A stretch of DNA of 64,000 nt from Gekko japonicus (taxonomy: Eukaryota): assembly GCF_001447785.1 (NCBI RefSeq), contig NW_015166430.1:261595-325594 (forward strand), given 5' to 3'. Shown in pieces: positions 9,401 through 63,030 of the stretch. Positions within the stretch are counted from its first letter, which is position 1; each line of letters starts with the position of its first letter. The notes below the pieces were generated by a model that was not told where the DNA came from, did not search any database, and saw nothing but the letters and a program-made list of their open reading frames with translations. The translations under genes were made by a program, and so were the position numbers.

Positions 9401-9636
9401 TGTTGTGTCTGTAGGTGAAATTAATCTAGACTAATGAACAAATTAAGTGATTAAGCTAATAAATATATTTTCACATTAGTAAATGAACCTAGATTAATTA
9501 ATATGGAATAATGCAGGACTTTTGTTGTGTCTGTAGGTGAAATTAATCTAGATTAATGAATGAATGAAGTAATTAATCAGTTAAATATATTTTCACATGA
9601 GTAAATGTACCTATATTAATTAATATGGAATAGTGC
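9401..9636. repeat. AT-rich ~122-bp tandem duplication (2 diverged copies)
   Basis: tgttgtgtctgtaggtgaaattaatctaga...aatatggaata at 9401 and 9523. Confidence 0.9.
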
Positions 9637-12290: not shown

Positions 12291-13032
12291 GTAAGGGCTG
12301 CCAGACTGCACTGGGAGAGGGGAGCCAGTTTGTTCATTTCTGTCTTTGCCCTGCCCTGGAGTTCTAGCTACTTGTAATTTAGTACTGGTTGGATAAGAAG
12401 CTAATGTGCCAGACATATCTGTAGAATCCCTTTTGCCACAAGCAATTTATGAGCCCAGCCATACAACTGCAAGAGGCTTTGAGGAGATGGATTATCTGGG
12501 CTCAAAAGAAACAGAAAAATGAACTCTGTCTGAGACTTTGCTTGTGCATGGAAAAATGGAACAGGAAGGCTTTAAACTGAATTTCATTACCGTGCCACTG
12601 CATTGGCTGCCTATAGCGCATGAGTCTCTGAGGCGGGATTCATGTCACGGCTGAGCTGGTGGTTCTTCTTTTGATTTCTTTAGCCCATCATGGTTTGCTC
12701 CTCTTGGCATTCTGGTCATCTTCCTTGTTCTGCTAGCTTTGCAGAACCCTGCCAAGGATCCACCCCATTGTGAGTGGGTGGGGGCAGAACTGACCTCTGC
12801 TCCTGGTCACAGATACCCATCAACCGCTCTGCTACAAGCAGCGGGCCACCATGGGCTCAAGAGGCTGATGCTATAGGCTGATGTTTTTTCTCACAGAAGT
12901 GTGCATCCTTGGATGCTGCTGGAGCAGTAGAGAGAGGAACACAGGGCTGCTTTGCTTTCCAGTATTCATTTGGTCATTGACTTAACTGGACAGCAGAATG
13001 TGCTTCTCAGATATGAACACCTGTCCATTCCT

Positions 13033-14839
13033 TTTTCTTTTTTTTTGGAGCCCCCCGTAGGGGATTTTTTAATTTGCATTTCTAAAAACTACATACTAAT
13101 AAACTAGAACGAAAATAGGGGAGGGTAACTACTCACTATGGGATAAAGTAAAAAACCCCCCACTAAAAACCCAAAAGATTGGGTCATACATACTGCTTAT
13201 CAAAACTGGCTTTTAGCTTCTTATTCAATAACAATATATTCGCTGTGGTCATCTCACAATTATTTTTAGCTTATATAATAACATAAATCACCTCTAGTTT
13301 TGACCTATTTTAAAACGGATTATAAGAATTAATTACTAAAGTATATAGAGCTTTCAAAGTGTAATAACATCTCATTTTTTCTTGTCCTTATGTTTTCTCA
13401 AATGGTAGCTTGTCTTCGGGGCAGCTGCCCCTAACTTAGAGTCCGGATCTTCATCTGATTCTGTCGCTGCTCCTTCTTCTTCACTTTGATTGGTGCTATC
13501 TTCTTTCTCCGTTTTTTTTTTCTCCTGGTGGGCGACTGTGTAGATGCAGAAATTCTTGTGCCTTTTCAACAGAGTCAATTTTTTCTTTCTTGTCCATAAA
13601 TTTGATCATCCATCTGTAGGGAATGTTTTTCTTTTATAGGAATAGTACTGGGTCTGTGTATTTCCTCCTCCTCCTCATTTCAAATGGTATGTCCTTTAAC
13701 ACTTTTATTTCTTTGTCTTTGAATTTCAAGGTAGATTCACTTGTTGCTTTGAGAATTTGGTCTCTCACTTGTCTTCTCGAGAATCTTACAATCACTTCCC
13801 CTGGCAGATTATTTTTTCTTGTAAATTCTGGATAAGATCTATAGACCATATCTATTTCACTTTGTAATATGTCTGCTTTTGGCAGATGCCAAAGGGCCCA
13901 ATACATCACACGTAATCTGTTTCAGATTCTCAGTCATCTTCAGGAACACCTTGAAACCTTAAGACATAGCTTGCTCTCTCCATTTGTAGCTGTAACAGTT
14001 GAGACTCTTCCATCAAATTCTTTTTTTCCATCACTTGCAGTTTCCCCCCCCCCAATTTTTTGGTGCTGGCATCCACGTCTTCTTTTTCACTTTTTCTGGT
14101 TTTTTTGGCTATTTCAGCCAATTGCAGTTGCTGTGCATCGAATTTGCCATGCAATGCTGTTATTTGCTCCAGCAGGGGTCGCAATGCTTCCGTTAGCATC
14201 TTTTGTAACTCTTCAGTTGTGTCTTGTCTAGGGGCAGGACTCGCTGGTCCAGCAGGTCTGACAGGAAGTTTTGATTCTTTGTGGATGCCATTTTTAGAGA
14301 TTGTTTACTTTTTGAAAAAGTTATCACAGTCTCTGATACTCCTTAATACGCTTGGTAAGTTCTTAAATACTTGTTAATTCAGTCTGTCTTGCTTCAATCG
14401 TTTACTCCCCTTATCGCTGTAGCTTAAAGTCGCTTAGCCTTTCTTATCGGGGGAGAGTCCCCCCCCCTCGCTTTTAATGGGAGATTTCTGGCTTAAATTT
14501 TCAGTGGTTCTTGCTTTAACTCAAACTCACAGTTCAACATTGATTCCACTTTTCATTTAATTTCGCTCGACCACCAAGCGCTTGTTCCGGTGTGCGATTC
14601 TTTTTCCCATACGGGACACTCCGCAGCGAGACCTTCGGGGCATGGAGGAGCCCCCCTTCTCCGGCTGGGTTGCTGGTGGAAGAGCTCAGTCTAGCGCCCC
14701 ATAGCTAGGAACCCATTGCAAGGGCTCCAGGGGTGGTGCGGACAATCGTGCCCCCTCCCATCCACGGGCTCTGGCTACCGTCTCCCGGAGGTCCATGGGA
14801 AAGTGGCAGCCATGGTGAACGCCAAAACCAGAAGTCCCT
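13033..14839 (-). mobile_element. Full-length ORF1-only L1-derived retroelement (HAL1/half-L1-like), with a disrupted ORF1 at ~14290-13372
   Basis: 16-bp TSD acacctgtccattcct (13017-13032, 14840-14855); poly(A) tail at 13033-13046; GC-rich 5'UTR starting near GGGACTTCTGG; ORF fragments resemble L1 ORF1p (coiled coil, LRFQGVPE, PGEVIVRF...RDQIL...IKVLKDIP..MRRRR); no ORF2. Confidence 0.88.
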
Positions 14840-15061
14840 ACACCTGTCCATTCCTAAATATCCCTTTCCTGGCTTGGAATTTTTCTACATTAAAAAACCC
14901 AAGTAAAGTGTTTAAGGGAGCAAGCCTAAGCAGGTCTACTCAAAAGTAATTACCATTTTATTCAGTGGCTCTTACTCCCAAAGAAAATTTTCTTAGGGTT
15001 GCAGCACCGGGTGTTTTCCACATGAGGACTGGCTTGAATGGATTCCTCTGTTGCTGCTGGA

Positions 15062-15345
15062 GAGCCAGTTTGGTGTTGTGGTTAAGTGCGTGGACTCTAA
15101 TCTGGGAGAACTGGGTTTGATTCCCCACTCCTCCACTTGCACCTGCTGGATGACCTTGGGCAAGCCGTAGTTCTGATAAGAGCTGTTCTTGAAAAAAGAG
15201 CAGTTTCTGTCAAGAGCTCTCTCAGCCCCACCTACCTCACAGGGTGTCTGTTGTGGGGAGGGGAAGAGAAAGGAGTTTGTAAGCTGCTCTGAGACTCCTT
15301 TGGGTAGTGAAGGGCGGGGTATAAATCCAATCTCCTCTTCTTCTT
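15062..15345 (+). mobile_element. tRNA-derived SINE, Squam3-like
   Basis: A box tggtgttgtgg, B box gggtttgattccc, core cctacctcacagggtgtctgttgtgggg, (TCT)n tail; four near-identical copies in the window. Confidence 0.85.
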
Positions 15346-15814
15346 GCTACAGCCTAGCAACAGCAGGGCTTCCACATGGTAAGTTTCCCTGCATTCTCCT
15401 TGCCTCAGTTCCTCAGCTGCAGCAGCCATTCCCCCACAGCACAAGCATGGGTTTTTTCATTTTTTAAAAGCAATCAGCAATAAAATATCATTATTGCATT
15501 ATAGTTAATCTGTCTGGCAGGTTCTCTGAAGTTCCAGGTTCAGTAAAAAAAAAGTCATTAGCTTCTTCCATTGCAAAAATATAAAGAGAAAAGCATATAT
15601 TTGCACAGAAAGGAACAAAGACCTGCTTTAAAAAAATGAAAGGTGGGATTTCAGAGAACCTAATATGCAGATTACTACATAATAAGAATATTCAATTGGT
15701 TGCGGGGAAATGGAAAAATGGTAGTGATGTGAGCAGGATTGAGAAGATCAGGACCTTCCTGTCCACTTGGATGCCATCCAGGCTTTGCTGTGATCTTTCC
15801 CAAAACTTTACTAC

Positions 15815-16192
15815 AGTCCCGGTCACACGGAGAATTTGCCTCGGGAGAGGCATGACTGCCTGGCGGATTAAACGGGCGTGATCATATGGAAACATATGGG
15901 AAGCATCGCTCGCCTGTCCCCAGCACATAGCTTACCGCCAAAGATCCGGAGTTAAAAAGTACCGCCCACAAGCTACTAGCAAATGGTTTGCCACGGGCTG
16001 CAGACGGACTGTCTCCGTCTGATCGCCCCAGCGTGCTTCTTTTGCCCCATTGAAGCATCGCAAGAACCATGTGCCGACGAAAACAACGCGGTTTGCCGCC
16101 GTCACGTCTACTTGCGTTGCAGCGGCTCAAATTGTGACGGCGCTAATAGCCACGCCTCCTCCCCGCGTTATCTGGCCCGTGTGACCAGGGCC
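15815..16192. mobile_element. CpG-rich MITE, PIF/Harbinger-like, subfamily A
   Basis: TIR consensus GGCCCCGGTCACACG; 3-bp TSD tac/tac. Confidence 0.8.
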
Positions 16193-17829
16193 TACAAAGC
16201 AAGTTTGGAAAATATTCAAGAAAGATGTGGGGAAGTACTATGATGATGTGGGAAAGCAGGATAAACCCCCCACTTTCCAAACCCAGGTCAAACAACCCAT
16301 GTGTAAGTGACCTGAGGACCCAGCCAGGAAGTCCCTGGTTTAGTTCTCATGCATGCTACCACCTCCTTAGGTAACACCTTTGGCAAGCCACTGCGTCCTG
16401 ATCCTCAGCGGCCTCAACACATACAGACCGTTATGGGGCTCTGCTAGGCTTGCAGTAATATATGTGACACAATTCAAACATTCTAAAGTGCTGCATAATA
16501 TTGCTTATTGTGTAGTGTGTGGGATTTCCGGGGACCTGCCTCGAGGAGATGTTCAGGGCATGCACAGGGTTGCTAGCTACATTCTCCCTTGAACTTACAC
16601 ATTTGTCATCAAACTAGCTCAGTCCTAGGGACTTATGGAGTAACTAGTGCTGAGCCAAAAAAGATGGGGAGTACTTTGGTAAATATTTCCACCACCTGCA
16701 AAAGCTCCACTCTTTCAGTGATGGAGAAGGTTCAGTGTTTGCACATCGTCTTCCTGTTAGCTTCAGAAAAATCCACACTCACTAAAGTCCTCCAGCTTCT
16801 TAGTAAGCCCTTGGTTGTGCGCTTGCTAGGCAGGGCCTAATGTACTGTGGCTGTTATATGGCAGATACATCTGCTGCTTTCTGCTCTTTTGTCCTGCAGG
16901 TTTATAGGAGGGCACTGCATTCTGGGAAATTTATGTACTATCTAACCTACCTTGGGAAGCACTCTCAGCAAAAGGAGATGCCTGTCATGGAGAGCACTGG
17001 TCTTGGCTTAGAAAATTAGGACCTCTGTCATGCATGCAAGAGTTGCACAACATACAAAATTCTCTCCTCCCTGGGCAGCTCCCTTGCCTGCAGCACAGGG
17101 CAGAGGCCCACACCATGCCCTTTGATTCCTCCCTTCCTGTTCAATGCTTGCTTCCCTTCATTTGAAAACAGAACAGTGAATTGTTAATCAAGCAGTTCTC
17201 TACTGCATTAGGAAGTAGCTGCCGGAGCAAAAGAGATTTTCCACTGTACTGCACATGGAACACATGTGTTTACTTAACCCATCTTCTGATAAACGATCAT
17301 GCCATCCAACTTGATAATTCCTGGCAATGCTCATCAAAGTCCCTTATTGGGGTACATGCTTATTGTTAGGAGGCCTGGTCTTTGGAGGGAGGGGCCAGGA
17401 CATTCAATACATGACTGTGTCAACCTTCTTTAAGCTCTGTGTTCCCCCTTTATAAGATACATGGAGAAAAGGGAATTTTCTTACCTAACCCAGGGGAGCC
17501 ATAAGGATAATTTGTTCCTGGACTGAACTTGTTGTTTTGTAAGTGCTGGACCTTTGGGCATGCATGGACAGGGGACATGTGAACAATGGGAAAAAGCTCT
17601 CAGCCTTTAGCTACATAGTTAAGAATATCAAAATTATTATTGTATCATCAGCATGCATGATGCTTTACAGAATACAAGAAGTTGAGTCTTTGTCCTGAAA
17701 TTTCACATAAGGGATCACAAAGAGGTAGAGGTGGGGGTAAGCAGGAGAGGAATATTGCAGATGGGTAGCCTTGTGACTCTTCAGTGACAGAACAAAACAG
17801 TATCCAGGAGTCATTCAGAGACTAAGAAA

Positions 17830-18217
17830 GGCCCCGGCCATACGTGGCCGGAAAACGCGGGGGGGGGGGGGGGGAGGCGTGGCTATTTGTGCCGTCGCAT
17901 TCAGATCTGCCGTTATGCGATCAGACGTGATGGTGGCGCACCGGGGTTTTGTCCTTCGGCACGCGCTGCAAAGAGGACAGCCGGAGGGAATAAACGCGCG
18001 CCGGCGCAATCACACCGAACGAGTCCGTCTGCAGCCCATGGCAAACTATTTGCTAGTAGATCTTTGCAGGTACTTTTTAACTGCGCATCTTTGGCGTCAC
18101 GCCACGGGTTGGCCATGGGTGCACTACGCTTCCCAGATGTTGCAGTGTGATTGCGCCCTGAAAATCTGCCCAGCATTCATGCCTTTTGCGCAGCAAATTC
18201 TCCGTGTGACCGGGGCC
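17830..18217. mobile_element. CpG-rich MITE, subfamily A, opposite orientation to the 15815 copy
   Basis: ggccccggccatacg ... cgtgtgaccggggcc; TSD aaa/aaa. Confidence 0.85.
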
Positions 18218-18329
18218 AAAGTTTATTCCAGCATAAATTTTTATGAGTCAGAGCTCACTTCATCACATGCACAAAGGCAGGTGAATTTATATTAAAGGCT
18301 GAAAACCACAGAAAGGTGGGAGCAAGTGG

Positions 18330-20220
18330 GTGGGTGGAGAAGAAGTGCTACAAAGAGAAGCCATTTTAAAACAAGATCCAGTCCAGTGAGAGTGGGTGAG
18401 GACCACGCCTGACTGTAGATGGATAGGCAAAGTGGGATTAACATAAAATCTGATCTAGGAAGGTACAAGATGAAACATGAAAAGCTGATCCAATAAGAAA
18501 GGTATAGAGATATAGTTGAACTAATTAATATATGTAGGGGTGGGAATATGCAAGATATTCTTACTATAGTGAGCGAGGACCCAGTGGGGGGGGAGAATAG
18601 TTTTGTAGGAGAATAGTGAATTTTAGCAGAATGCCCTGGCAGTATACAAGTATGGTTGGGTAGAGAGACAGTTCCAGGCATAAGAGGCACACAGTGAAAA
18701 CGTGGTAGTGTTGTTTGAGGGTGCCCTTCAGAGGTCTGAGAGCTGGAGGAGTGAAGGTAAAGAGCAAGGCTCTATTGGGATGTGAGAGTGGAGTAATCAG
18801 AGGGGAGGGGAAGAGAGCTTGGAAACCAAATTGTCAAGGGTTTTGGGAAAAGAGAAGGTTGAGATAGCAGGAGAAAACCTCATGCCCCAGGAGTTTGGAG
18901 AAGGGAAACAGGGTGTTAGTTAGAGATGAAGGAAGAATCAAGTCATGGCTTTTGGGAGTGGTGGAAAAAGAGATGCATTTGTTCTGTTCTGGCTCCTCCT
19001 CTGCTGTATTCAATGGACTGACATCTGGTGGAGAGGAGAGATAATAATGTGGGAGATGCCAAACTAGTCCAAATAGGATTGTGGATGACTGTGGAGGGGT
19101 TGAACAGTGTCAACAGAATAGTCATCCTATCAAGTGAAATGGGAAAAGGGAAAAGATTGAACAAGGTGTAGAAACAGAAGTTGAAGGGGAAATGGGAGAG
19201 AGTGGTACAGAGATTAGAGCAGATAATTTTACCACTGCAGGAGGGAGTTAAGATGAGGAAAGCCTTAGTAGGACTTCAGAGGTGAAGAAGGATTCCTGAG
19301 GATTCCTAGAGCTGGTGTTGATGAAGGAGGTGGATGAGAGAGAGGCAGAGAGAGGTGTAAAGTACCTGCTTAGCCTGGTGGATGGTAGACAAGAAGGAAG
19401 AAACAATGAATGTATAATGAACAAAATTAGCCAGCCCTTTTGTTCTTCTCCAGGTGCATTCAGCTACATGAGAACATGAATAGAGATTTTGAAAAAGAGA
19501 GCAAGCTGGTGCTGGGGATAAATGATTCACTGGGGGATTGGATTCATGAGTTGAGAATGGGGATTAGTTGAAGGCAGACGTACAGACCTAAGGGGTGAGC
19601 AGAAGGGAGAAGTGGGTGCAGAACGTCTGAGAAGGTCCTGGAATCCAGAAGGAGCAGGTGTGGGGAAGGTGAATTAAGTGTGATGAGATAAGGTGATGGT
19701 CATTCAGAAGGCATTCAGAGAAGTCAGAGACCGAGTAGTTCTTGGTGAAGACAAGATCAAGAGTGCCTCAGGCAGTGTTCAGGGAAGTCAGTCCAGAGGA
19801 ACCAAAATGCTGCTGGGTCAAAGGGAGGATCATCATGGATGCTGAACTTACTACTGAGTAAAGCAAAACTGCTATCAGAGAGGAAGAAGAGGCATCAAGG
19901 TCAAAAATAACAGTAGACTGAGATCTGGAGGGGTAATCTACAACTGCAGCACAGAGCTGCAGAGGGAAATAGATCTGGACAGAATGAACTTTAAAGACAA
20001 TAAAGCAGTAGGATGGAGATGTGGGCACAAGCTGGGACTGGCAGACTTTGGGTGAGAAGAAGGAAGCCAGAATCATCACCATGGACATCAGGGTGATGTG
20101 TGGCAGAAGGAGATCTCTCAAAGAGAGAACAGCAACAGTTGCAGTCTTGGGGTATGCCAGGTAAGGAGAAGTACCTTGGGGAGTTTGAGAGAGATAAAGA
20201 CCATAACATTTACCTAGGCA
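18330..20220 (-). mobile_element. Degenerate L2-clade LINE ORF2 (endonuclease to RT) fragment
   Basis: Pyrimidine-rich - strand with remnant APE motifs (GTLDLVFT, DHHL near 19700-19767) and many stops; boundaries approximate. Confidence 0.65.
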
Positions 20221-20603
20221 CAGGAGATCTCTTCCACAGTTCAACAGATGGTGCATTCTTTTTACTCTTTTCAAGGCAAGTCTAAGCATAATATAATAGC
20301 CCTGGGCAGAAATCTGACAGCATTTTAAACACCTTTAACTGAGTAGCAGTGAATGGAAAGAGCAGAGGAGATTCTACTGGAAATTTTTACTTTTGTGTAG
20401 CTTAACAGAGGTAGTGTAATCAATTCTATCACTAAACATGTAGGTTGTCACATTTTCCAACAACAAAATGGCAGATAGTACTCTAGCAAGTAGTTCTTAC
20501 CCTTTCTTAATGTGGGAAATAATTTTTAATGGTAGCAGAGTCACTACTGTAGAGCTGTGCTGTTGCAGAAGATTAATTAAAGGCTGTCTCTTGAACCCTG
20601 CAG

Positions 20604-20696: not shown

Positions 20697-21832
20697 AAAG
20701 TTACTTACTTCTCACAGAATCAGGCATCGTCAGCAGGCTGACTGTCTACTTGAAGGTGAGGAGGTCGTCCCAAGTGAAATCTTGGCATGCTCTTTGACCT
20801 GCTGTTCCTTCCTGTTACTTGAATAGAAGATTTAAGATCTATGCTGGAAGCTACAGGAGATGACTACTCAGCCTTTTCCTTTTGTTTGTGTGCTGAGCTC
20901 ACACAGTAGACTTGTCTTGGACAGTTGTGTTCCTTTAGCTGAGGACTAGGTGGAATACACAAGGCAGCAAGAACCAACTGCACTAATATTTGTTTGTCTG
21001 ACTATTTATTCATCCATTTGCTACAGTGGAAACGTCTTAGGAGAGCAACATCAGCTCAAAGAATTTCAGATGGCTGCTAGGAAAGGAATCAAGCCTGACC
21101 ATGTGGCTTGACTCTCCTCTGTGGAAGTGGGATGCATGTGCTTTCCCAAATGCTCAGCTGTGCCCACGTCTCTTCTATTCTTACGTCAAGCTATGTGTTG
21201 GCTGCCAGGAGATCAGGCCACACCAAAGAAACTGGTAGGTCTTCTTGAGTGTAAGTTACACTCTTACCAGTGTGCCAATTGATAAGGTACTTTCATTCAA
21301 AACGTCTGCCATCTGTTTGATTCTATATCTGAATCACAGGTGCCCTATTTTCAGTTTTATTGGAAATTTCTACTAAAAAATGGCGCCATTTCATGGGTGA
21401 AATCTTGCTCTTTTTGTATGTATCTAACCCTCATTATTTAATGGAAGGGGGAAGAGTTTTTCCATTTCCAAACTAAGTCACTGTATTTAGTAATCTCCTC
21501 TTCTTGCTTACCAGACAACTAGTTATCTTACAACTTACAAAATGTCCATTGTTCTCTTGAGTTGTAATGAGAAAACAGCTGCTATATACCAACTTTGGAT
21601 GCCAGGATGGGCATGCTGCTCACACAGGAAAGTGCCCAGATCTGTTAACACAATAGAGACCAAGTTTTCACAGGATCACGTTTGTAATTTTTCTGACCAC
21701 CCTAATTATTTGTCTTACTACAGAGGATGGACATTTCCTGCAGAAATCTTCCTTGGTCCAAGCAATTTAAATCACACCCTTGCTGCAACCTTGGGGTGGG
21801 TGGGTGGGTGGGCATTTTCTGGTGTTCTCATA

Positions 21833-22095
21833 GAAGATGAGTTGGATTTATACCCTGCCCTTCACTCGGAGTCTTAGAGTGGCTTACAATCTCCTTCCCT
21901 TCCTCTCCCCTCAACAGACACCCTGTAAGGTAGGTGGGGCTGAGAGAGCTCTGAGAGAACTGCTCTTGAGAGAACAGCTCTGAGAACTGTGACTGACTCA
22001 AGATCACCCAGCTGGCTTCATGTGGAGGAGTGGGGAATCAAATCCAGTTCTCCAGATTAGAGTCCGGTGCTCTTAACCACTACACCACACTGGCT
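21833..22095 (-). mobile_element. Squam3-like SINE, possibly within the INAVA 3'UTR
   Basis: Reverse complement of the 15062 copy. Confidence 0.85.
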
Positions 22096-23010
22096 GTCAT
22101 AGTATTTCTGAGTTTAGATAGCAGGTTAGGGTTGCCAGCTTTTTTTGTGACAGGTGTACCATTCATTTAACCGCTGCATGACCAGCAGAAACTCTATTGT
22201 GAAACTTCTGTTACATCTGCGTTGTGCTAAAAGTTTCACCCATGGTCTAGTAAAGTTCATACAGCTGCACAGGAGCCTAGCCATTTGACTGGATGAAGCT
22301 CCTCCTGTCTAAGGAAGTTCCCTTCATTTCTGTTGAAGAAAGAGCCACATACACCAGAGGAATCTCCACAGGCTGCAGGAAGGTTTCACAATTTTCTCAG
22401 TGGAGTGGTGGGATACAGCTCACTGCACTGTAGTGGCTTAAGAGACCAAAGTACTAATCAGTCTGAGGACTCTGAATTGAGACTATCCAAAGTTAACCTT
22501 TTAGATGCTTTTCAGCTCAGTGAGAATACTATAGTGTGTCTAGATTTTGACCTGCCCCATCCTCTCTGAACCCACTTTTCCCAATCTTCCGTTGTGGTAA
22601 TCTGTCATTTGAGCAACTTCACCACCTTCAGTGTGGTAGAGCGACTCTGTGCTTTAGCCCCGGCCCCTCTCCCACCGAGTCACGCACTGTCATTCAGGGC
22701 CAGCCTGTCACCAGAGCTGTGCATATGCTGTGCCTTGAAGATCAAAATTCCACTCACAATAGCCCTAATTCTGTGCCCAGAAAGCTGAATTCTACAGCTT
22801 GTGCACATTAATTCTGCAAGTTAAAACAAATATGGGTAATTCCTATTTCACTAGTTATGTAAAGGAGCAAAAGGGTTATGGAAGACACTGAAGTTCCCCT
22901 CCCTATTGAACACCATGTTCTGTCTTTCCTCTGGCTTCTCTAATTTCAACAGGTATTGCCCACACACAAATAGCTTGCCTCCATAAACTTAGGAACTTGG
23001 CTCTTCCAAC

Positions 23011-33058: not shown

Positions 33059-33722
33059 CAGTACCAGACTATTAATATGCTAGGCAGAGGGAGGGCCTTT
33101 TCTGTCGGTGGCACCTCCTCTTTGGTATTCCACCACTGTTGCTCACCTGGCACTTAGATTTTCTAGATGAAATCTCTGTTCAGGCATTTTGTTGATTTTT
33201 TAAAATAATTTTTGTTGCTTCTTAGCTAGCTTTCAATTAGAGATTTTGACACTGTAAACAATGGATTTTAGTGTTTGACTGCCGAACTTTCTTGTACTGT
33301 GCAAGCTCCCTTTGTCTAAGAATAATTGCGGGAGTTTTTAGAATCAGCAAACAATATGTAAATTAATGTACATTAATAAAATGAAAGAAATACCTAACAT
33401 ATGACACCAGAATAACTGAGACACTGATTAGACCCATGAAGATTGGATCCAGGGCTCTCTGTTGGGACAGAAGGTCTTTTCTGCAGCTTGACTGAAACAC
33501 CCAGTCAGCAGTAGACGTTTCTATTGGAACACAGACTGTGAATGTAAAGGTACTGGTGTTTTTAAAATACTGCAGAAACACTATTCTGATAGCATACCAC
33601 TGATATCAGACCAAAAAGCTTATTGCCCTAGAGAGGACAGGAGATGGGATGGCGAAGAAAACCACATAATGCAATGCTCTTACAAACGCTGCCCATGGAG
33701 CCCTTGGCAAACTGCCTAATAC

Positions 33723-33840
33723 CTTGACATAGTGGTCTTTGGATCCCGTGATGATCAGATCATGGTTGTTTGCAGTCTGGTTCACTGTGAGGCACATCAC
33801 AGGCCCAATGTGGCCTGTCAGTTTCCCAATGGGCTGCAGT
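33723..33840 (-). CDS. KIF21B: KIF21B WD40 exon ([18 protein letters not shown]...TGSKDHYVK)
   Basis: gccag|a acceptor, aag|gtatta donor. Confidence 0.96.
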
Positions 33841-34079
33841 CTGGCCAAAAAAGGAAAAGATATGAGAAGACCAAATGTTGACAATGTACCCCCCTTCCTT
33901 CCTTCTCTCCAACACAGCCAGCCCCAGAAACAAAGGGCCCTACAGATATAATTGCTAAGCTAGAAGCCCCACCTAAATAGTTTGGCTATTTAAGAAGTTT
34001 TGGCACAGCCACAGCCTTTTGCCATTCTGTTCTAAAGATTCTCTGCCAGTTTGTTTCCAGGAAAAATTCAAAGTCCTAG

Positions 34080-34560
34080 TTCTCACCTTTAAAGCCCTAA
34101 ACGGCTTGCAGCAAGGGTACTTGAAGAACCCCCTGCTCCCATATTGTCCAGCCTGCCAATTAAGACCTGCCTAATAAGCCCTGCTCTCTGTGCCTTCAGA
34201 AGCGATGTGGGTGGCAACCAGAGACATGGCTTTTTCAGCAGTGGCACCTCGCTTGTTCTGCTTCAGGCTCACTGGGCACCTACATTGCTTTCTATTAGGT
34301 GCCAGGTCAAATGTTTCAGATAACTCAGGATTTTAATGAAGGGGTTGATTTATTAACACTGTTTTGGCCTGGAAACTGTGGTCTAAACTATCTGTAGTCT
34401 ATTTTTACTATCTATGTTTTTATGCTGGGCTGGAGCTTTTTTGTGTGCTGGATTTTACTTAATGTTTTAATTTAATGTTTTGTTCTTATTGTTTTTATTT
34501 GGGAAGATGCCTCAGGCAGGTTCTGGGAGAGGCAGCATAAAACTATTCTAAATAAATAAA
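34080..34560 (+). mobile_element. L2-clade LINE 3' fragment
   Basis: acctttaaagccctaaacggctt...ttttcagcagtggcacct...(AAAT)n tail. Confidence 0.65.
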
Positions 34561-35646: not shown

Positions 35647-36030
35647 CTTAACAAAATAAGAGAATACTTAAATTATGCCAGTGTTGATCCTATTCCCAAC
35701 AGAGAGTCAGAAACAACCTCCTTATAGTAAGGCAACAAGATATCTCAGCAGGTATGCTAAGATTGCCCGTTTGTCAGACATGTCTGTAAAATGTGAACAC
35801 ACAGAAATTAAGATGGGAAACAACAATTTTTAATTCAATCATTAGTCCCTATAAAAGTAACTATTAAATTTGAACATTCTAACAAATGCATATTTTCTTT
35901 TTCCCCATACATATATGTGGCGTTAACAGATGTACATTACTGGTTGCCATCAGTACCTTTACCATACCTGTCTTCTTATGGTATATGAATGACAGCCTCC
36001 TCATAATAGAACATATCTTTGCTATATATC

Positions 36031-36549
36031 GGCCCCGGTCACACGGAGAATTTGCCGCGCAAAAGGCACGAATGTCAGGCAGATTTTTGGGGCACGATCA
36101 CACTGCACCATCTGGGAAGCGTAGCGCACCTGTGGCCAACCCATGGCCTCCCGCCGAAGATGCGGAGTTAAAAAGTACCAAGGAAAGTGCACTAGTATCC
36201 GGAAAACGTGTGGCACAGGCGGGCGTCTGATCACGGGAGCATTAGTATCCCGTGGTATCCGGCACCTGTCCACATCTCATCGCAAACCAGATGTTTTTCG
36301 TAAGCGCATGCGCACAAACACGAAACTGAAAGCAGTGCTGCTCCGTAGAACTGCGCATGCGCACAAACGCAAAACGCTTGTGTGATCGCGCCGCACCACT
36401 TCTTGCCCCGCTGCAGCATCGCCGTGTGATTGCCAGCAAACAGCCTAAGCACTCAGGGGACCATGTGATCGAGCTACCGCGCTTTATTTTGCTCCGGGGT
36501 GAGCAGCCATGCCTCCCCCCTGTGTTATCTGGCCCGTGTGACCGGGGCC
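36031..36549. mobile_element. CpG-rich MITE, subfamily A (long form)
   Basis: Perfect 15-bp TIR ggccccggtcacacg/cgtgtgaccggggcc; TSD atc/gtc. Confidence 0.85.
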
Positions 36550-45606: not shown

Positions 45607-45731
45607 CTAAAACAAAGACCCAAGAGGCATGAGTCACCACAAAAAGCACACTAGCTAGCGGATGAATATCAAAGCGATTCCTAGGCTAGCAGTGCAGATG
45701 CTACCCAGAACTGGAAAACGAGCACTTCTTC

Positions 45732-46263
45732 GGCCCCGTTCACACGGAGAAGTTGCCGTGCTAAAGACACGAATGACAGGTGGATTTTTGGTGTGCGATC
45801 ACACCGCAATATCTGGGAAGCGTAGTGCACCCATGGCTTCCCGCCGAAGATGCGGAGTAAAAAACTACTGCAGAAAGTACACTAGTTTCCAGAAACTGCG
45901 GGGCAGGGGCGGGTGTCTGATCACGTTTCCGCTTGAATCCTGTGGCATCCGGTGCCTGTCCATGTCTTGTTGCAAACCAGATGGGGTTTTTTAGTCTCCA
46001 CAAGATGCGCACAAACACCCAACGGTGCATGCGCAAACATCGGTGGGGGGGGAATTCCCATTTGCCACGGAATTGCCTAGCGATTGCTGATGTGATCGTG
46101 CTGTGCCGTTTCTTTGCCATGCTTCAGGATAGCCATGTGATCGGCACCTGATGGCCTAACCACGGGAACTCGACGGGATGTGTGATCGGGCTGCCGCGCT
46201 TTACTTTGCTCCGGGGCAAACAGCCACGCTCCCCACCCCCCCGTTTTCCGGCCTGTGTGACCG
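45732..46263. mobile_element. CpG-rich MITE, subfamily A, right TIR partly deleted
   Basis: ggccccgttcacacgga start; colinear with the 36031 copy; ends tgtgtgaccg. Confidence 0.8.
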
Positions 46264-47208
46264 TCTTGGTCAGTTTTCTCTTTCTCAGACTGTAAAACTA
46301 GCTGCTGGGCAGTCTTCGTAAAACTAAATCACCTGCTCCAGTTCTGCATTTAGTATGGAAAACAAAAGAGCCCTAGTCATGTTGCATTGCCCCCATTCCA
46401 CTGGATTTCAAGTAGGCCCGTATAGGAGGTAATAATTTGGGTGGCTGCACTAAGGAGGCAGAGAAATGAGTGGAAAAGACACATCAGGGCTTTGTTTTAA
46501 TTTCATTTGTTGGATTTACCAGAGCAGGATAGTAATGGCAGTAACATCTGGATTTACAACACTACTACCTCTAGTGGCAAAATTCAGTATAAAGATTTTA
46601 TCTAGGCTCCAATAAAAACTGGGGGTGAAGTCAAAAAAAGTCAAAAGGCAGCCACTGAGGCTCCTCACTGGTCATAACTCCATGGCATAAGAATGGAGCT
46701 GGACCAGTTGGCTCAGATGGGCACTAAAAACAGTGGAGAAACCTCTGTCCTGAGCCTGAAAGGAAGAGGAAGGAGACAGATCGTGGATGGGCAATACTTT
46801 TGAAAGAAGGTCTTTCTTTCCCCCTTGGTTAAACTTCCTTGTGGAGGCACTCCTTTCTGCCTGCTTACATTGTATTTTGAATGGTGTCAGGAAATAAATG
46901 TCTTAAAAACAAATCTCATTGCACAAGTGCCTTCATCAAAATGCCCAACCTTGTGAGAATGGTGCCAATTGTTTATATAAACTAAACATGCTATGATGGA
47001 TACCTGCTTCTTCTCTTCTGTGAGGCAGATTTTCCTGCCAAAACACTGTTCCCCATTCTGACTGAGCAGCCTCTTAGTAGTGTATTTGAACTATATTATT
47101 ATTATTATTATTTATTATTTATTTGATTTCTATCCCGCCCTCCCGTTTCTGCCTGTTCCACTCTGTGTTAAAGAAGTTATTTGGCTTTTGCCCAGGCCAG
47201 AGATTTAT

Positions 47209-52939: not shown

Positions 52940-53830
52940 TCACCACCACCACCACCGGATTTATATCCCGCCCTCCCTGTAAGCCGTCTCAGGGTGGGTC
53001 ACAACAGTTAAAATACAAACATAGCAGTAAATCCAAATACAAGTACAAATTCATACAAAGTTAAAATTCCTAAACACAGCAAGAAATGGCAGAAAATTTC
53101 AGTTTCCAGTATCCACAGGCACCTCCGGTGCTGGGCATATGCTGACAAGGATAAAGACCCACTCGACAGATGCCATGGCGCTTTCTAGAAAGGGCAGTTC
53201 ACCTGTGCAGTATACGCAGGGGAGGCCGAAGTATTTAGACATCTGCTGCCTCAACCAAAGGCCTGGCAGAACAGCTCCATTTTACAGGCCCTGCGGAATT
53301 GCATTAAATCCTCCAGGGTCCTGATCTCCAGTGGGAACATGTTCCACTAGGCTGGAGCCAGGGCGGGAAATGCCTTGGCCCTGGTTGAGACTAAGCAGAC
53401 ATCTATCGGGCCTGGAACTACCAGCAGATGTTGCTCAGAAGAGCGCAAGGCTCTACGGGGCACATGAGGGAAGAGGTGGGCCAGCAGATATGTCAGTCCC
53501 AGGCTGCATAGGGCTTTACCATAACCTTGAACCAAATCCAGTACTCAGTTGGCAGCCAGTGCAATTGGCATAACACCAACTGAATGTGCACCCACACAGA
53601 CATTGCAGTCAACAGGCATGCTGCTGCATTTTGCACTAGCTGCAGTATTCGGGTCAGATTCAAGGGTGGCCCTGCATAGAGCATGTTACAGTAATCTAAC
53701 CGGGAAGAGACCATTACATGGGTCGCTGTAGCTAAGTCCTGGGTGGAAAGATAGGGAACCAGCTGAAGATGGTAAAAGGTCGATCAGACAGTCATGTTGA
53801 CCTGGGCCTCCATGGAGAGGCATTCAGGAC
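52940..53830 (-). mobile_element. L2-clade LINE 3' fragment
   Basis: SRLDYCN...LQLVQNAAA.LLT...LHWLP (ORF 53493..53714), then 3'UTR and tail. Confidence 0.85.
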
Positions 53831-55939: not shown

Positions 55940-57140
55940 TCTATATATATATAAAAAAGAAAGTCCCCTCACCATAAAATCAACGCCCAGGCCAAACCCT
56001 CGGACCTAGAAACATGAAATTCAGGGAGAGCACTCCTACCATGACGTAGATGCTCACTAAGAAGGGATTTTTAGAAATTTGACCCCTAGGGGGGTCAAAA
56101 GGGGTAAACTGTCCTCCCCCCATTGTTTCCTATATGGCTACCAGACTGCGGCCTCCTTGCACCCCCGATCTCTCTGATTGGTCAGCTGCAAAGCTCAGTG
56201 TTCTGAGGTAAAAAAAAAACAGTTACAGGAGACTGCAGAGAGCTAATGACAGTTGAGGAAATCAGGAATGGCCAACCACCTGTGAGGTGCAGCAATGCTG
56301 CTGGCCCAGCCTCCCCCATGACTTCAAACACGCTCCCCCTACCTCCTACACCTGACAGGCGGCTATCTGTCAGGTGCAGCAGCAGGTGCAGGTTGCTTAA
56401 AGCCATCATGGAGTCTGCCCCAGCAGTAACGCCTTAGCAATCCTGCCGGCTCAGCCTCCACAATGGCTCGCAATACCACTCCCCTCCCTTCCTACACTGG
56501 ACAGGCAGCTGCCTGTCAGGTGTAGGAGAGGGGGGTGGGATGCTTACAGCCATCAGGGAGGCTTGCTCAACAGGATTGCCTTAGCACTGCTGCTGGCCCA
56601 GCCTCCCTGATGCCTTTAAACACACTCCCCCCACACACACCAGACAGGCAATGCAGCTGGGCCAGCCTCCCCAAAGGCTTTAGACACACTCCCACCTACC
56701 CCTCCATCAACTGAGCCCGCTCGCGGGGTAGGGCGGGGTAGAAATACCTGAATAAATAAATAAATAATAAATAAAAACTGACAGGCGGTTGTCTGTCAGG
56801 TGCAGGAGCAGGGGCAAAACATTTAAAGCCATCAGGGAGGCTGCCCAAGCAGCACTGCCTTAGCAGTCCTGCTGGTGCAGCCTCTCTGATGCCTTCAAAC
56901 ACGCTACCCCTCCTACACCTGACAGACAAATGCCTATCAAGGGTTGGAAGGGGCGTGTAGTCCTTAAAGCCATCAGGGAGGCTTGCTCAGCAGGATTGTC
57001 TTAGCACTGCTGCTGGCCCAGCCTCCCCGATGCCTTTAAACACACAAACACCCTTATACCAGACAGGCGGGTGTTTGTCAGGTGTAGGAGCAGGGCAGGG
57101 TACTTTAATCCATCAGGGAGGCTACCCCAGCAGGATAACC
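55940..57140 (+). mobile_element. Probable non-autonomous Helitron (5' end plus internal tandem array; no 3' CTAG terminus found)
   Basis: A|TCTATATATATATAAAA terminus followed by atcaacgcccag..aaacc..ctagaaacatgaaatt..atgacgtag..ctaagaagggattttt..acccctaggggg. Confidence 0.6.
56270..57140. repeat. Tandem array of ~141-148-bp units (~6 copies), each with internal inverted repeats
   Basis: aaagccatcagggaggc-like motif at ~56399, 56547, 56825, 56966, 57106; palindrome cctacac..gacaggc/gcctgtc..gtgtagg in each unit. Confidence 0.85.
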
Positions 57141-58222
57141 TATGACTATCAACAACTCCCAAGACTTAACAGATGACTGCTCCTCACATGGGCAGTTCTA
57201 TGTGGCCTGCTTCAGAGTGAGCTCACTAAGCAGCCTGGTAATCCTAGCATCTGAGGGTAGAACCACCAATGTGATCTATTCAGTAGAGAAAAACAAACAG
57301 AACGTATGTCTCACTTCATTTTTTACACTATAATCTTCTCCATTAGAATTCCTACAACAAATGTTACATTTCAAACTCCAGATCATCAGTATTATAACTG
57401 GATTTATGGAACTTAATTACCGTAGTGAAGCATGGGTATCAGGCTGGTACCCAATAGCAAACATAGTTGTATACGGGATGGTCCACTGTCTGAAGTGATC
57501 ATAGGCAACACTAGAGGGCACTGTTTAGTGCTGCAGTGGCTGGAAGCAAAGCTTACCCTTGTTGTTGTTATTGGACTGGAAGTTAGGGCTAGTGGTTTAG
57601 CCCATTGTTGTCACTGACCAAGTTAACAGAGACATACAAAGTCAGTAGGAGTTATTGGTCTGTATCCTACCATTTGGTTCAGTGAAACTTGATAAGTTCC
57701 TCTAGCCCAAGTAGCCTTCCTCCAACTTAACTGCCTCCCCCTCCTCTGCCAGAAGAGCAACATAATCTGAGAGAATTCTCCTTATGCTGAAAGAAGGCTT
57801 CAGTCTTTGTTGAATTACATGGTAGGATACATGCCATTGTAAGAAGAGCACCAAGACTGACAGCAAATCTGGGGTAATACAGAACACAGATCTGGGGAAA
57901 CATGTTTGCACTTTATATTTCTCCTGCTGTTCAGCTATGCTTGCCTTTGTGTCATTAATGGCTAATGGAAATCCTTGCACTCCCTTTCTGTGACTGTCCT
58001 GGATGGCTGTCAGACGGGACTGTCACTGAGACCTCCTGATAGATCCTTAGAGAACCTAACATCCAGTATGGATGTTTGCTTTGCTTTGACAGGCCTAATA
58101 CCATGTTATTTCATTTCCTTTCCATGCCTAAAACCGCTTGATAACAGTTCACTTAATGAGGGTAGTTATACTAGAACTACACTGTTTAAAGAATATTTCC
58201 AGGGCAGCCTAGAGTTACCAAC

Positions 58223-58574: not shown

Positions 58575-58850
58575 AAAAGAAGAAGAAGAGATTGGATTTA
58601 TACCCCGCTCTTCACTACCCAAAGGTGTCTCAGAGCGGCTTACAAACTCCTTTCCCTTCCCCTCCCCACAACAGACACCCTGTGAGGTAGGTGGGGCTGA
58701 GAGAACTCTGACACAAACTGCTCTTTTTCAAGGACAGCTGTGCCAGAGCTTGTGACTGACCCAAGGTCACATCAGCAGGTGCAAGTGGAGGAGTGGGGAA
58801 TCAAACCCGGTTCTCCCAGATTAGAGTCCGCACACTTAACCACTACATCC
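58575..58850 (-). mobile_element. Squam3-like SINE
   Basis: Reverse complement of the 15062 copy. Confidence 0.85.
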
Positions 58851-60619: not shown

Positions 60620-61063
60620 GGCCCCAGTCACACGGGAGGTTTAGGGCCGGAAGAGGGACGGATCGGGGGTGCAGCAAACTGGCGCAATTCCACCACAACA
60701 TCTGGGAAGCATTGCGTACCCGTCCCCAATCCGGCCCTTCAGGCCGAAAATCCGTAGTTAAAAGAAACCACCTACAGATGTGGACTTACCAGAAAGGCCG
60801 CATCAAGCGCGGCCGTGGGATCGCTGGCACGTCTTTCTGCTGGCGCATCCGAGGCTCTTGGCCGAACTGCACATGCGCACACATGCGCAGCCGGCTGTCT
60901 CGGTCTCCGGTCGGTGGCTTCCTCCCCGACATCTGATCGTGCCAGGGAGCAACGGTGCGGCGGCTCAGGGGATCTATGTGATCCTGCCGCCACGTGTTTC
61001 TTTTGGTGCGGCTCTGAATAGCCGCACTTTGCCCGTGTTTTTTTCTTCCATGTGGCAGGGACC
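60620..61063. mobile_element. CpG-rich MITE, subfamily B, nested in a - strand L2 remnant (~60385-61170)
   Basis: ggccccagtcacacg ... catgtggcagggacc; TSD atg/atg. Confidence 0.8.
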
Positions 61064-61769: not shown

Positions 61770-62040
61770 GAGAAGAAGAAGAGATTGGATTTATACCCCG
61801 CCCTTCACTCAGAGTCTCAGAGCAGCTTACAATCTCCTTTCCCTTCCCCTCCCGACAACAGACACCCTGTGAGGTAGGTGGGGCTGAGAGAGCTCTTTCA
61901 AGAATTGCTCTTGAGAAAACAGCTTTGAAAGAACTTGTGACTGACCCAAGGTCACACCAGCAGCTGTATGTGGAGGAGTGGAGAATCAAACCCGGTTCTC
62001 CCAGATTAGAGTCCGCATGCTTAACCACTACACCAAACTT
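61770..62040 (-). mobile_element. Squam3-like SINE
   Basis: Reverse complement of the 15062 copy. Confidence 0.85.
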
Positions 62041-62270
62041 GCATCTTCCAAGAGTATGAGAAAAGAAACACCTTTGACAAAACCCAGCTGCTGTTCAGGT
62101 GAAAGAAGTATTACTCACAGGTTTTGAGGATTTGAATCAACCTCTCTATGCCTAGATCATGGCCTTGAAAGGGAAATGAGGCCCCCCCACTGCCTCTTAG
62201 GTATGGGTCATTGCATATACATGCTCTCAACCTGTCAAAGCCCAGTTTTCCCTAAGCAGCATGCCCTTAC

Positions 62271-62589: not shown

Positions 62590-63030
62590 GGCCCAGGTCA
62601 CATGGGAGGCTTTGATCCGCGAGAGGGATGGATCGGGGGTGGAGCAAGTGGGCGCGATCTCACAGCAACATCTGGGAAGTGGCGCGCACCTGTCCCCGAT
62701 CCGTCTCTTCAGGCCAAAGATGTGGTTAAAAAAACCACACCTACAAAACACTACTACTTACCTGAAAATCCGCAGCAGGGGCGGCCATGGGATCGCTGGT
62801 ACGCCCGTCTCCGGCAGCATGCGAGGCCCCCGGCCAAACTGCACAGGCGCGCACATGCGCAGCGGGCTGCCTCGCTCACTGATATGTGGCTTCTCCCCCC
62901 CCCAGCATCTGATCGTGCCGGGGAGCAACTGCGCGGCGGCTCGGGGGATCTGTCTGATCCTGCCGCCACGCGTCTCTTTTGAAAAAAGCCGCACTTCAGC
63001 CGCACCTTTTCCCCCAGTGTGACCGGGGCC
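62590..63030. mobile_element. CpG-rich MITE, subfamily B
   Basis: ggcccaggtcacatg ... agtgtgaccggggcc; TSD tgt/tat; colinear with the 60620 copy. Confidence 0.82.

Follow-up and report, generated by a model that had tools for sequence, protein, structure and literature searches.

An ORF1-only L1 insertion with the layout of a HAL1 element in a gecko intron

Location and ends of the insertion

The element described here is inserted in antisense orientation, 726 bp past the splice donor, into an intron of a gene which we take to be INAVA, based on the CUPID domain in an upstream exon, a C-terminal motif and the synteny with KIF21B. The initial annotation had placed it in the last INAVA intron, and the intron is indeed the last coding one. 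A WD40 exon, presumably of KIF21B, is located at 33609-33959 (-), tail to tail with INAVA. The features of the locus are listed below, with positions in the window (the whole 64-kb stretch of DNA analyzed) and the strand in parentheses.

12291-20603 (+), host intron of phase 0 with GT/AG ends (donor at 12291, acceptor at 20603), before the last coding exon
13017-13032 (-), TSD, the arm downstream of the tail; exact 16-mer repeat
13033-13046 (-), A-tail of 14 nt, A9-G-A4, as read from the sequence
13047-13371 (-), 3' segment of 325 nt, about 32% GC, in which no ORF2 remnant was detected
13068-13073 (-), ATTAAA polyadenylation signal, separated from the tail by AAA and a GC-rich spacer of 18 nt
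13372-14291 (-), decayed L1 ORF1 of 920 nt (about 304 codons) with coiled coil, RRM, CTD and an acidic/basic tail
14292-14839 (-), 5'UTR of 548 nt, the presumed internal promoter, a role expected from L1 biology
14808-14838 (-), terminal motif of lizard clade-1 L1, by the consensus in the consulted parts of PMC5381506 and the 5' ends in its supplement
14840-14855 (-), TSD, the arm upstream of the element; exact 16-mer, with the flank TT/AGGA at the nick

The two arms of the TSD are an exact direct repeat of 16 nt, and the insert between them spans 13033-14839 (1807 bp), so that the perfect 16-bp TSD around 1807 bp noted at the outset was reproduced with its coordinates. The chance of such a 16-mer pair anywhere in 2.9 kb is approximately 0.001, and decreases to approximately 3e-7 when each arm has to fall no more than 30 nt from the respective end of the element. 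The combination of A-tail and TSD, which is a criterion for HAL1, identifies the insert as a TPRT product. The mammalian L1 endonuclease has the target consensus TT/AAAA, and the site used here, TT/AGGA, agrees with this mammalian consensus at four of six positions, leaving the proposed resemblance only partial. Likewise, the poly(A) described initially exists as an A-tail of only 14 nt, with an interruption. By blastn, the 64-kb window was found to contain no second copy, the best match other than the element itself and its TSD having an E value of 0.098.

The 3' terminus, composed of ATTAAA, AAA, spacer and tail, may be the own end of a family, or an older short tail with a small 3' transduction from the source locus. 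At 13047-13073 (-), the 18-nt spacer after ATTAAA and AAA holds a small hairpin of C4/G4. Folding of the 3' and 5' ends detected no significant structure (z = -1.0, -0.45, and -0.95).

The 5'UTR has a GC content of approximately 50%, rising to 59% within its first 300 nt, which contain 17 CpG. The observed/expected ratio of CpG is 0.93 and 0.54 in two 200-nt intervals, compared with 0.27 for the whole window. The terminal motif, preceded by one extra A (14839), follows the 5' terminal consensus of autonomous lizard clade-1 L1 except for one C-to-T change in a CpG and a spacer of 12 nt, not 8 nt, to the ATGGC part. With one mismatch at most, the 10-mer of this motif is found five times on both strands of the 64 kb, and one of these five matches is positioned 3 nt from the TSD. 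As judged from the sequence, the element has a complete L1-type 5' end with a predicted promoter region, and its 5' terminus points to derivation from the lizard clade-1 L1 lineage. A splice-donor-like GTGAGT is also present at 14530 (-), approximately 310 nt into the 5'UTR; GTAAG was noticed by eye at a similar distance in several Anolis clade-1 5'UTRs in the consulted part of the supplement of PMC5381506.

Identity and decay of ORF1

The layout initially proposed for the minus strand, a CpG-rich 5'UTR, ORF1, an AT-rich 3' segment and an A-tail, was recovered in every part, including the frameshifted L1 ORF1p-like frame of about 300 codons that terminates with RKHKDKKK and a stop. ORF1 starts with ATG at 14291, stops with TGA at 13374-13372, and consists of 40% A. 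A middle piece of 95 aa (RRM) matched only human L1 ORF1p chains in PDB (four of four, best E 0.003). Searched against 1.84 billion representatives, the RRM-CTD core of 122 aa, with the stop read as X, retrieved 182 proteins with E values up to 0.001, and a family profile of 33 sequences matched the human L1 ORF1p chains at E 3e-13. The AlphaFold model of ORF1 gave a pLDDT of 74.6 and a pTM of 0.45, and the top 10 rows of Foldseek were all L1 ORF1p (best E 0.002, none below E 0.001). By homology and predicted fold, the element encodes L1 ORF1p (coiled coil, RRM, CTD), with the frame broken in this copy. The Pfam profile Transposase_22 (PF02994), which had been proposed for checking ORF1, gave 15.3 and 14.7 bits for the element, under the gathering cut-off of 22.4, which none of six relatives tested reached either (best, 20.3 bits), indicating that squamate ORF1p is poorly recognized by this profile.

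The best relative, P0002, is an open frame of 305 aa, whose N-terminus is equally short and whose tail is similar (its record holds two members and one contig of 1540 bp), and is identical with ORF1 at 111 of 279 aligned residues (40%). Frameshift-aware alignment to P0002 identified frameshifts near 13935, 13880, and 13512, a stop at 13636-13634, and an in-frame deletion of 6-7 CTD codons; a fourth frameshift near 14270, outside this alignment, was taken from the reading frames. A-runs are present at three of the four frameshifts. With four frameshifts, a stop and a deletion, ORF1 is dead in this copy. The element had been described as complete, and its family as keeping its own RNA chaperone: this copy is complete at both ends but not in coding capacity, and its broken ORF1 cannot make a working chaperone.

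The extent of decay was estimated from the single stop (one observed against 35.7 expected per unit divergence) as 2.8% (95% CI 0.07-16%). A perfect TSD is still likely at such a level of decay (probability of 0.38 at 3%), and thus ORF1 may have been intact at the time of insertion. The RRM-CTD core of the element, however, reached 104.6 bits; the 78 relatives compared ranged from 94.5 to 158 bits (median, 140), more than 90% of them scoring higher, and some of the decay may therefore predate the insertion.

The acidic and basic C-terminal extension pointed out in the initial annotation is present, but was discarded as a novelty because it is ordinary for this group of ORF1p. Among 85 scored relatives, the tail after CTD has a median length of 53 aa and reaches at least 40 aa in 58, of which 15 follow a strict acidic-then-basic rule; the other 65 of 150 matches, short of the CTD end or at least 480 aa long, were left out of this scoring.

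The searched protein sets contained no close relative of the element, the best match showing 47% identity over the core. Word-based searches for close relatives gave none among 88 candidates and one among 8000, which was the query P0002 itself. Among the ORF1 relatives, seven are predictions in which ORF1 is fused to ORF2 sequence; a search with the ORF2 end of one such fusion retrieved 24 proteins, 18 of which are named from Anolis or Salvator (L1 RT). A quick ORF1p tree was built from 86 rows and 119 columns, and 43 of its 83 inner branches stayed open. It groups the element with P0002 (SH-aLRT 85) within a subclade of 15 rows (SH-aLRT 90), neither value being strong. ORF2-fused rows are absent from this subclade (0 of 15) and account for seven of 71 rows elsewhere, a difference that is not significant (p=0.35). 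The mean core identity in the subclade is 37%, compared with 46% and 51% in two clades that include ORF2-fused rows, and the lower value may reflect taxon sampling. The 15-row subclade as a whole could be an ancient, diversified group of squamate L1 parasites with ORF1 only, of an origin independent of mammalian HAL1, but we consider this quite improbable. If true, ORF1p would have been kept in cis for a long term among many coexisting L1 families, offering a natural test of partner specificity between ORF1p and ORF2p. Another clade of ORF1p, comprising 35 rows, also shows long end branches and includes no ORF2-fused row.

The same data bear on the idea that the element is a processed pseudogene, produced by retroposition of the mRNA of an L1TD1-like gene, i.e. 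an ORF1 gene domesticated by the squamate host. The insert does take the form of an mRNA copy, with the signal 21 nt ahead of the tail, and the open relative P0002 has few recorded members (two members, one contig). Against this origin, the element starts exactly at the L1 terminal motif, its ORF1 retains the strong A bias of L1, and this ORF1 falls among many divergent ORF1 lineages, so that a retrocopy of a host gene is hardly credible.

The 3' segment and the search for ORF2

The last 130 nt of the 3' segment carry T-rich, G and C tracts. By tblastn of 28 ORF2-bearing proteins against the element, only ORF1 matches or E values of at least 0.49 were obtained. The endonuclease N-terminus scored 28 on the 3' segment, compared with 27.0+-3.9 for shuffled sequences (107 of 300 as high); a pairwise control from another subclade scored 113, the true N-terminus being covered in this test by one protein only, P0163. 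The ORF2 C-terminal profile did not score above -1.0 bit within the 3' segment, and all six held-out controls gave 8.8-64.8 bits. With a whole-ORF2 profile in six frames, the best E value was 0.26, the N-terminal controls being weak (E 0.013 with 66 aa; 0.84 with 36 aa), so that more weight is given to the pairwise comparison. The ORF2 queries were taken from outside the element's own subclade, and the tests are blind to remnants that are shorter than about 45 codons or frameshifted. A resemblance by eye of the middle of the 3' segment to the last codons of ORF2 was dismissed, as all 13 ORF2 C-termini scored under the shuffle mean (sum of 282 against 330+-24).

In all nine Anolis clade-1 families described in the consulted parts of PMC5381506, ORF2 starts between -46 and +110 nt from the ORF1 end. 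In the element, no such ORF2, encoding endonuclease and RT, was detected in the corresponding interval of approximately 110 nt after ORF1. According to the same parts of PMC5381506, lizard clade-1 3'UTRs are 194-570 nt in length with 33% GC, and the inter-ORF spacers are 0-110 nt in clade 1 and 270-384 nt with 40-50% GC in clade 2. The 3' segment agrees with the clade-1 3'UTRs in length, GC and tracts, and is unlike the clade-2 spacers. By length and composition only, it looks like a clade-1 3'UTR joined to ORF1.

The lack of ORF2 near the ORF1 stop, together with the 3'UTR-like segment, fits poorly with simple premature polyadenylation, in which the transcript of a gecko L1 with a long AT-rich spacer would have been cleaved at ATTAAA within that spacer, and the ORF1-only RNA copied in trans. 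This origin could account for the presence of a weaker ATTAAA located 21 nt before the tail instead of AATAAA abutting the tail. Moreover, the consulted parts of PMC5381506 describe many cryptic signals in lizard L1 ORFs (25 on average) and long spacers as probably ancestral. The spacer lengths given above are for Anolis only, and in geckos the spacer might be long and AT-rich. The terminus of the element is nevertheless that of clade 1, with its spacers of 0-110 nt, the spacers of clade 2 are GC-rich, and ORF1 is not followed by endonuclease codons. Altogether, premature polyadenylation is considered unlikely.

The 3'UTR-like nature of the segment is also predicted if the element is a one-off product of internal deletion, i.e. 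an autonomous clade-1 L1 from whose RNA ORF2 was lost by splicing or by a template jump during TPRT, or from whose DNA it was deleted after insertion, and the product of which never amplified. The single copy in the 64-kb window agrees with such an event, and spliced and internally deleted human L1 insertions do exist, being described as dead ends in the consulted parts of PMC5860796. Since no ORF2 remnant was detected on either side, both breakpoints would have to be close to the two ends of ORF2, in narrow intervals of a 6.4-kb element. In addition, the 5'UTR of 548 nt is shorter than every Anolis clade-1 5'UTR (792-1465 nt in the consulted parts of PMC5381506), which suggests a separately evolved compact element. 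A one-off deletion is accordingly not a likely origin.

Relation to HAL1 and other elements in the window

HAL1 elements are ORF1-only with a tail and TSD, and have several mammalian origins (consulted parts of PMC5753468, PMC3627910, PMC13756887, and PMC5322556), the examples including human HAL1/HAL1b and guinea pig families (Bao and Jurka 2010, as reported in the consulted parts of citing papers). The element is a real, well-formed ORF1-only L1 insertion, and probably belongs to this known kind. As claimed in the initial annotation, a squamate thus carries an L1-derived, 5'-complete and TSD-flanked ORF1 unit with no detectable ORF2, the layout being that expected of HAL1.

We propose, with a probability of about 0.65, that lizard clade-1 L1 gave rise to a non-autonomous family of HAL1 type in squamates, supplied with ORF2p in trans, and that the element is one of its copies, now decayed. 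A family is supported by the clean arrangement of ORF1 and 3'UTR, by the short 5'UTR and by the open 305-aa relative of similar build, while the single copy, the lack of close protein relatives, and the presence of P0002 on a 1540-bp contig alone are against it or neutral.

Formation of such a family would have started from an ancestral L1 that lost ORF2, presumably by deletion, leaving the observed layout in which the ORF1 stop is joined to the 3'UTR. A source copy would then be transcribed by Pol II from the CpG-rich 5'UTR with the start at the conserved terminus, its RNA would be cleaved and polyadenylated 21 nt after ATTAAA, and, by the precedent of HAL1, its own ORF1p would coat this RNA in cis. 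Because the RNA would lack ORF2, ORF2p would have to be supplied in trans: the ORF2p of an autonomous L1 may have nicked the target, primed on the A-tail, and copied the whole short RNA, giving the 16-bp duplication. After antisense insertion in the INAVA intron, the copy would have diverged by a few percent, and its frame would have been broken. Mobilization of other RNAs by the L1 machinery of anole is reported in the consulted parts of PMC5322556.

The element shares with mammalian HAL1 the presence of ORF1 only, the A-tail and the TSD, and probably the dependence on L1 ORF2p in trans, but differs in its derivation from lizard clade-1 L1, which would imply an origin independent of mammalian HAL1. 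For mammalian HAL1, multiple copies and maintained coding were shown in the consulted parts of the literature, whereas the element is represented in the window by one copy with a broken frame. The likeness to Anolis clade-1 L1 (L1_AC1-15) includes the 5' terminal motif, an A-rich ORF1 of CC-RRM-CTD type and similar length, and the 3'UTR-like segment matching in length and GC; the element is, however, 1.8 kb in size without ORF2, in contrast to 6.2-6.7 kb, and has ATTAAA with a spacer instead of the canonical AATAAA followed by the tail (all according to the consulted parts of PMC5381506). Retention of an RNA-binding ORF with loss of the enzyme ORF is also seen in HeT-A (Jockey clade) and Ag-Sponge (CR1 clade), which belong to other LINE clades and insect hosts and are thought to arise through internal deletion (consulted parts of PMC5786205). 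Human SpIREs are, like the element, 5'-complete L1 insertions with an internal part missing, but they lose 5'UTR or ORF1 sequence, retain ORF2, and do not amplify (consulted parts of PMC5860796).

In the literature found, HAL1 is described as mammalian throughout the parts consulted. No report of a squamate HAL1 was found in the open-access literature searched, and an earlier entry for such an element, for example in Repbase or Dfam, is quite possible. The term HAL1 is absent from the consulted parts of PMC5381506 and PMC6050309, and no squamate HAL1 is included in those of PMC5203782 and PMC8290160. A squamate family, if true, would represent an independent origin of the HAL1 strategy from a different L1 lineage, and would support the idea that ORF1p in cis helps an RNA to hijack ORF2p, making this idea testable wherever numerous L1 families are found together. 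ORF1-only elements would then be the source of some of the ORF1-like genes predicted in lizards. The copy in the INAVA intron is itself dead and merely carried along in the intron, and nothing points to a function for the host.

A variety of other repeats was observed in the window. Four SINE copies of approximately 280 nt (15060-15345, 21832-22098, 58577-58847, and 61771-62042), with a tRNA-like head and a (CTT)n tail, are 81-90% alike; they fit Squam3B3 by length and tail, not by alignment. The Squam3B3 subfamily is listed only for two gekkonid genomes in the consulted parts of PMC7983390, so that the host is probably a gecko. CpG-rich elements, approximately 390-520 nt long and bearing terminal inverted repeats, are 68-89% alike and probably form a MITE family; they are located at 15813-16200, 17829-18214, 36029-36549, 45730-46270, about 60620-61005, and about 62590-62980; two of these copies share the INAVA intron in opposite orientations. 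An array of units of approximately 141-147 nt, some also matching as inverted repeats, occupies 56291-57141, and an AT-rich tandem duplication of 122 nt with 88% matches is found at 9401-9636. The sequences at 34007-34198 (+) and 53398-53564 (-) match part of P0048, a chimeric prediction, in a region that is LINE-like (E 3e-9 and 1e-6, respectively), and are probably 3' ends of another LINE clade.
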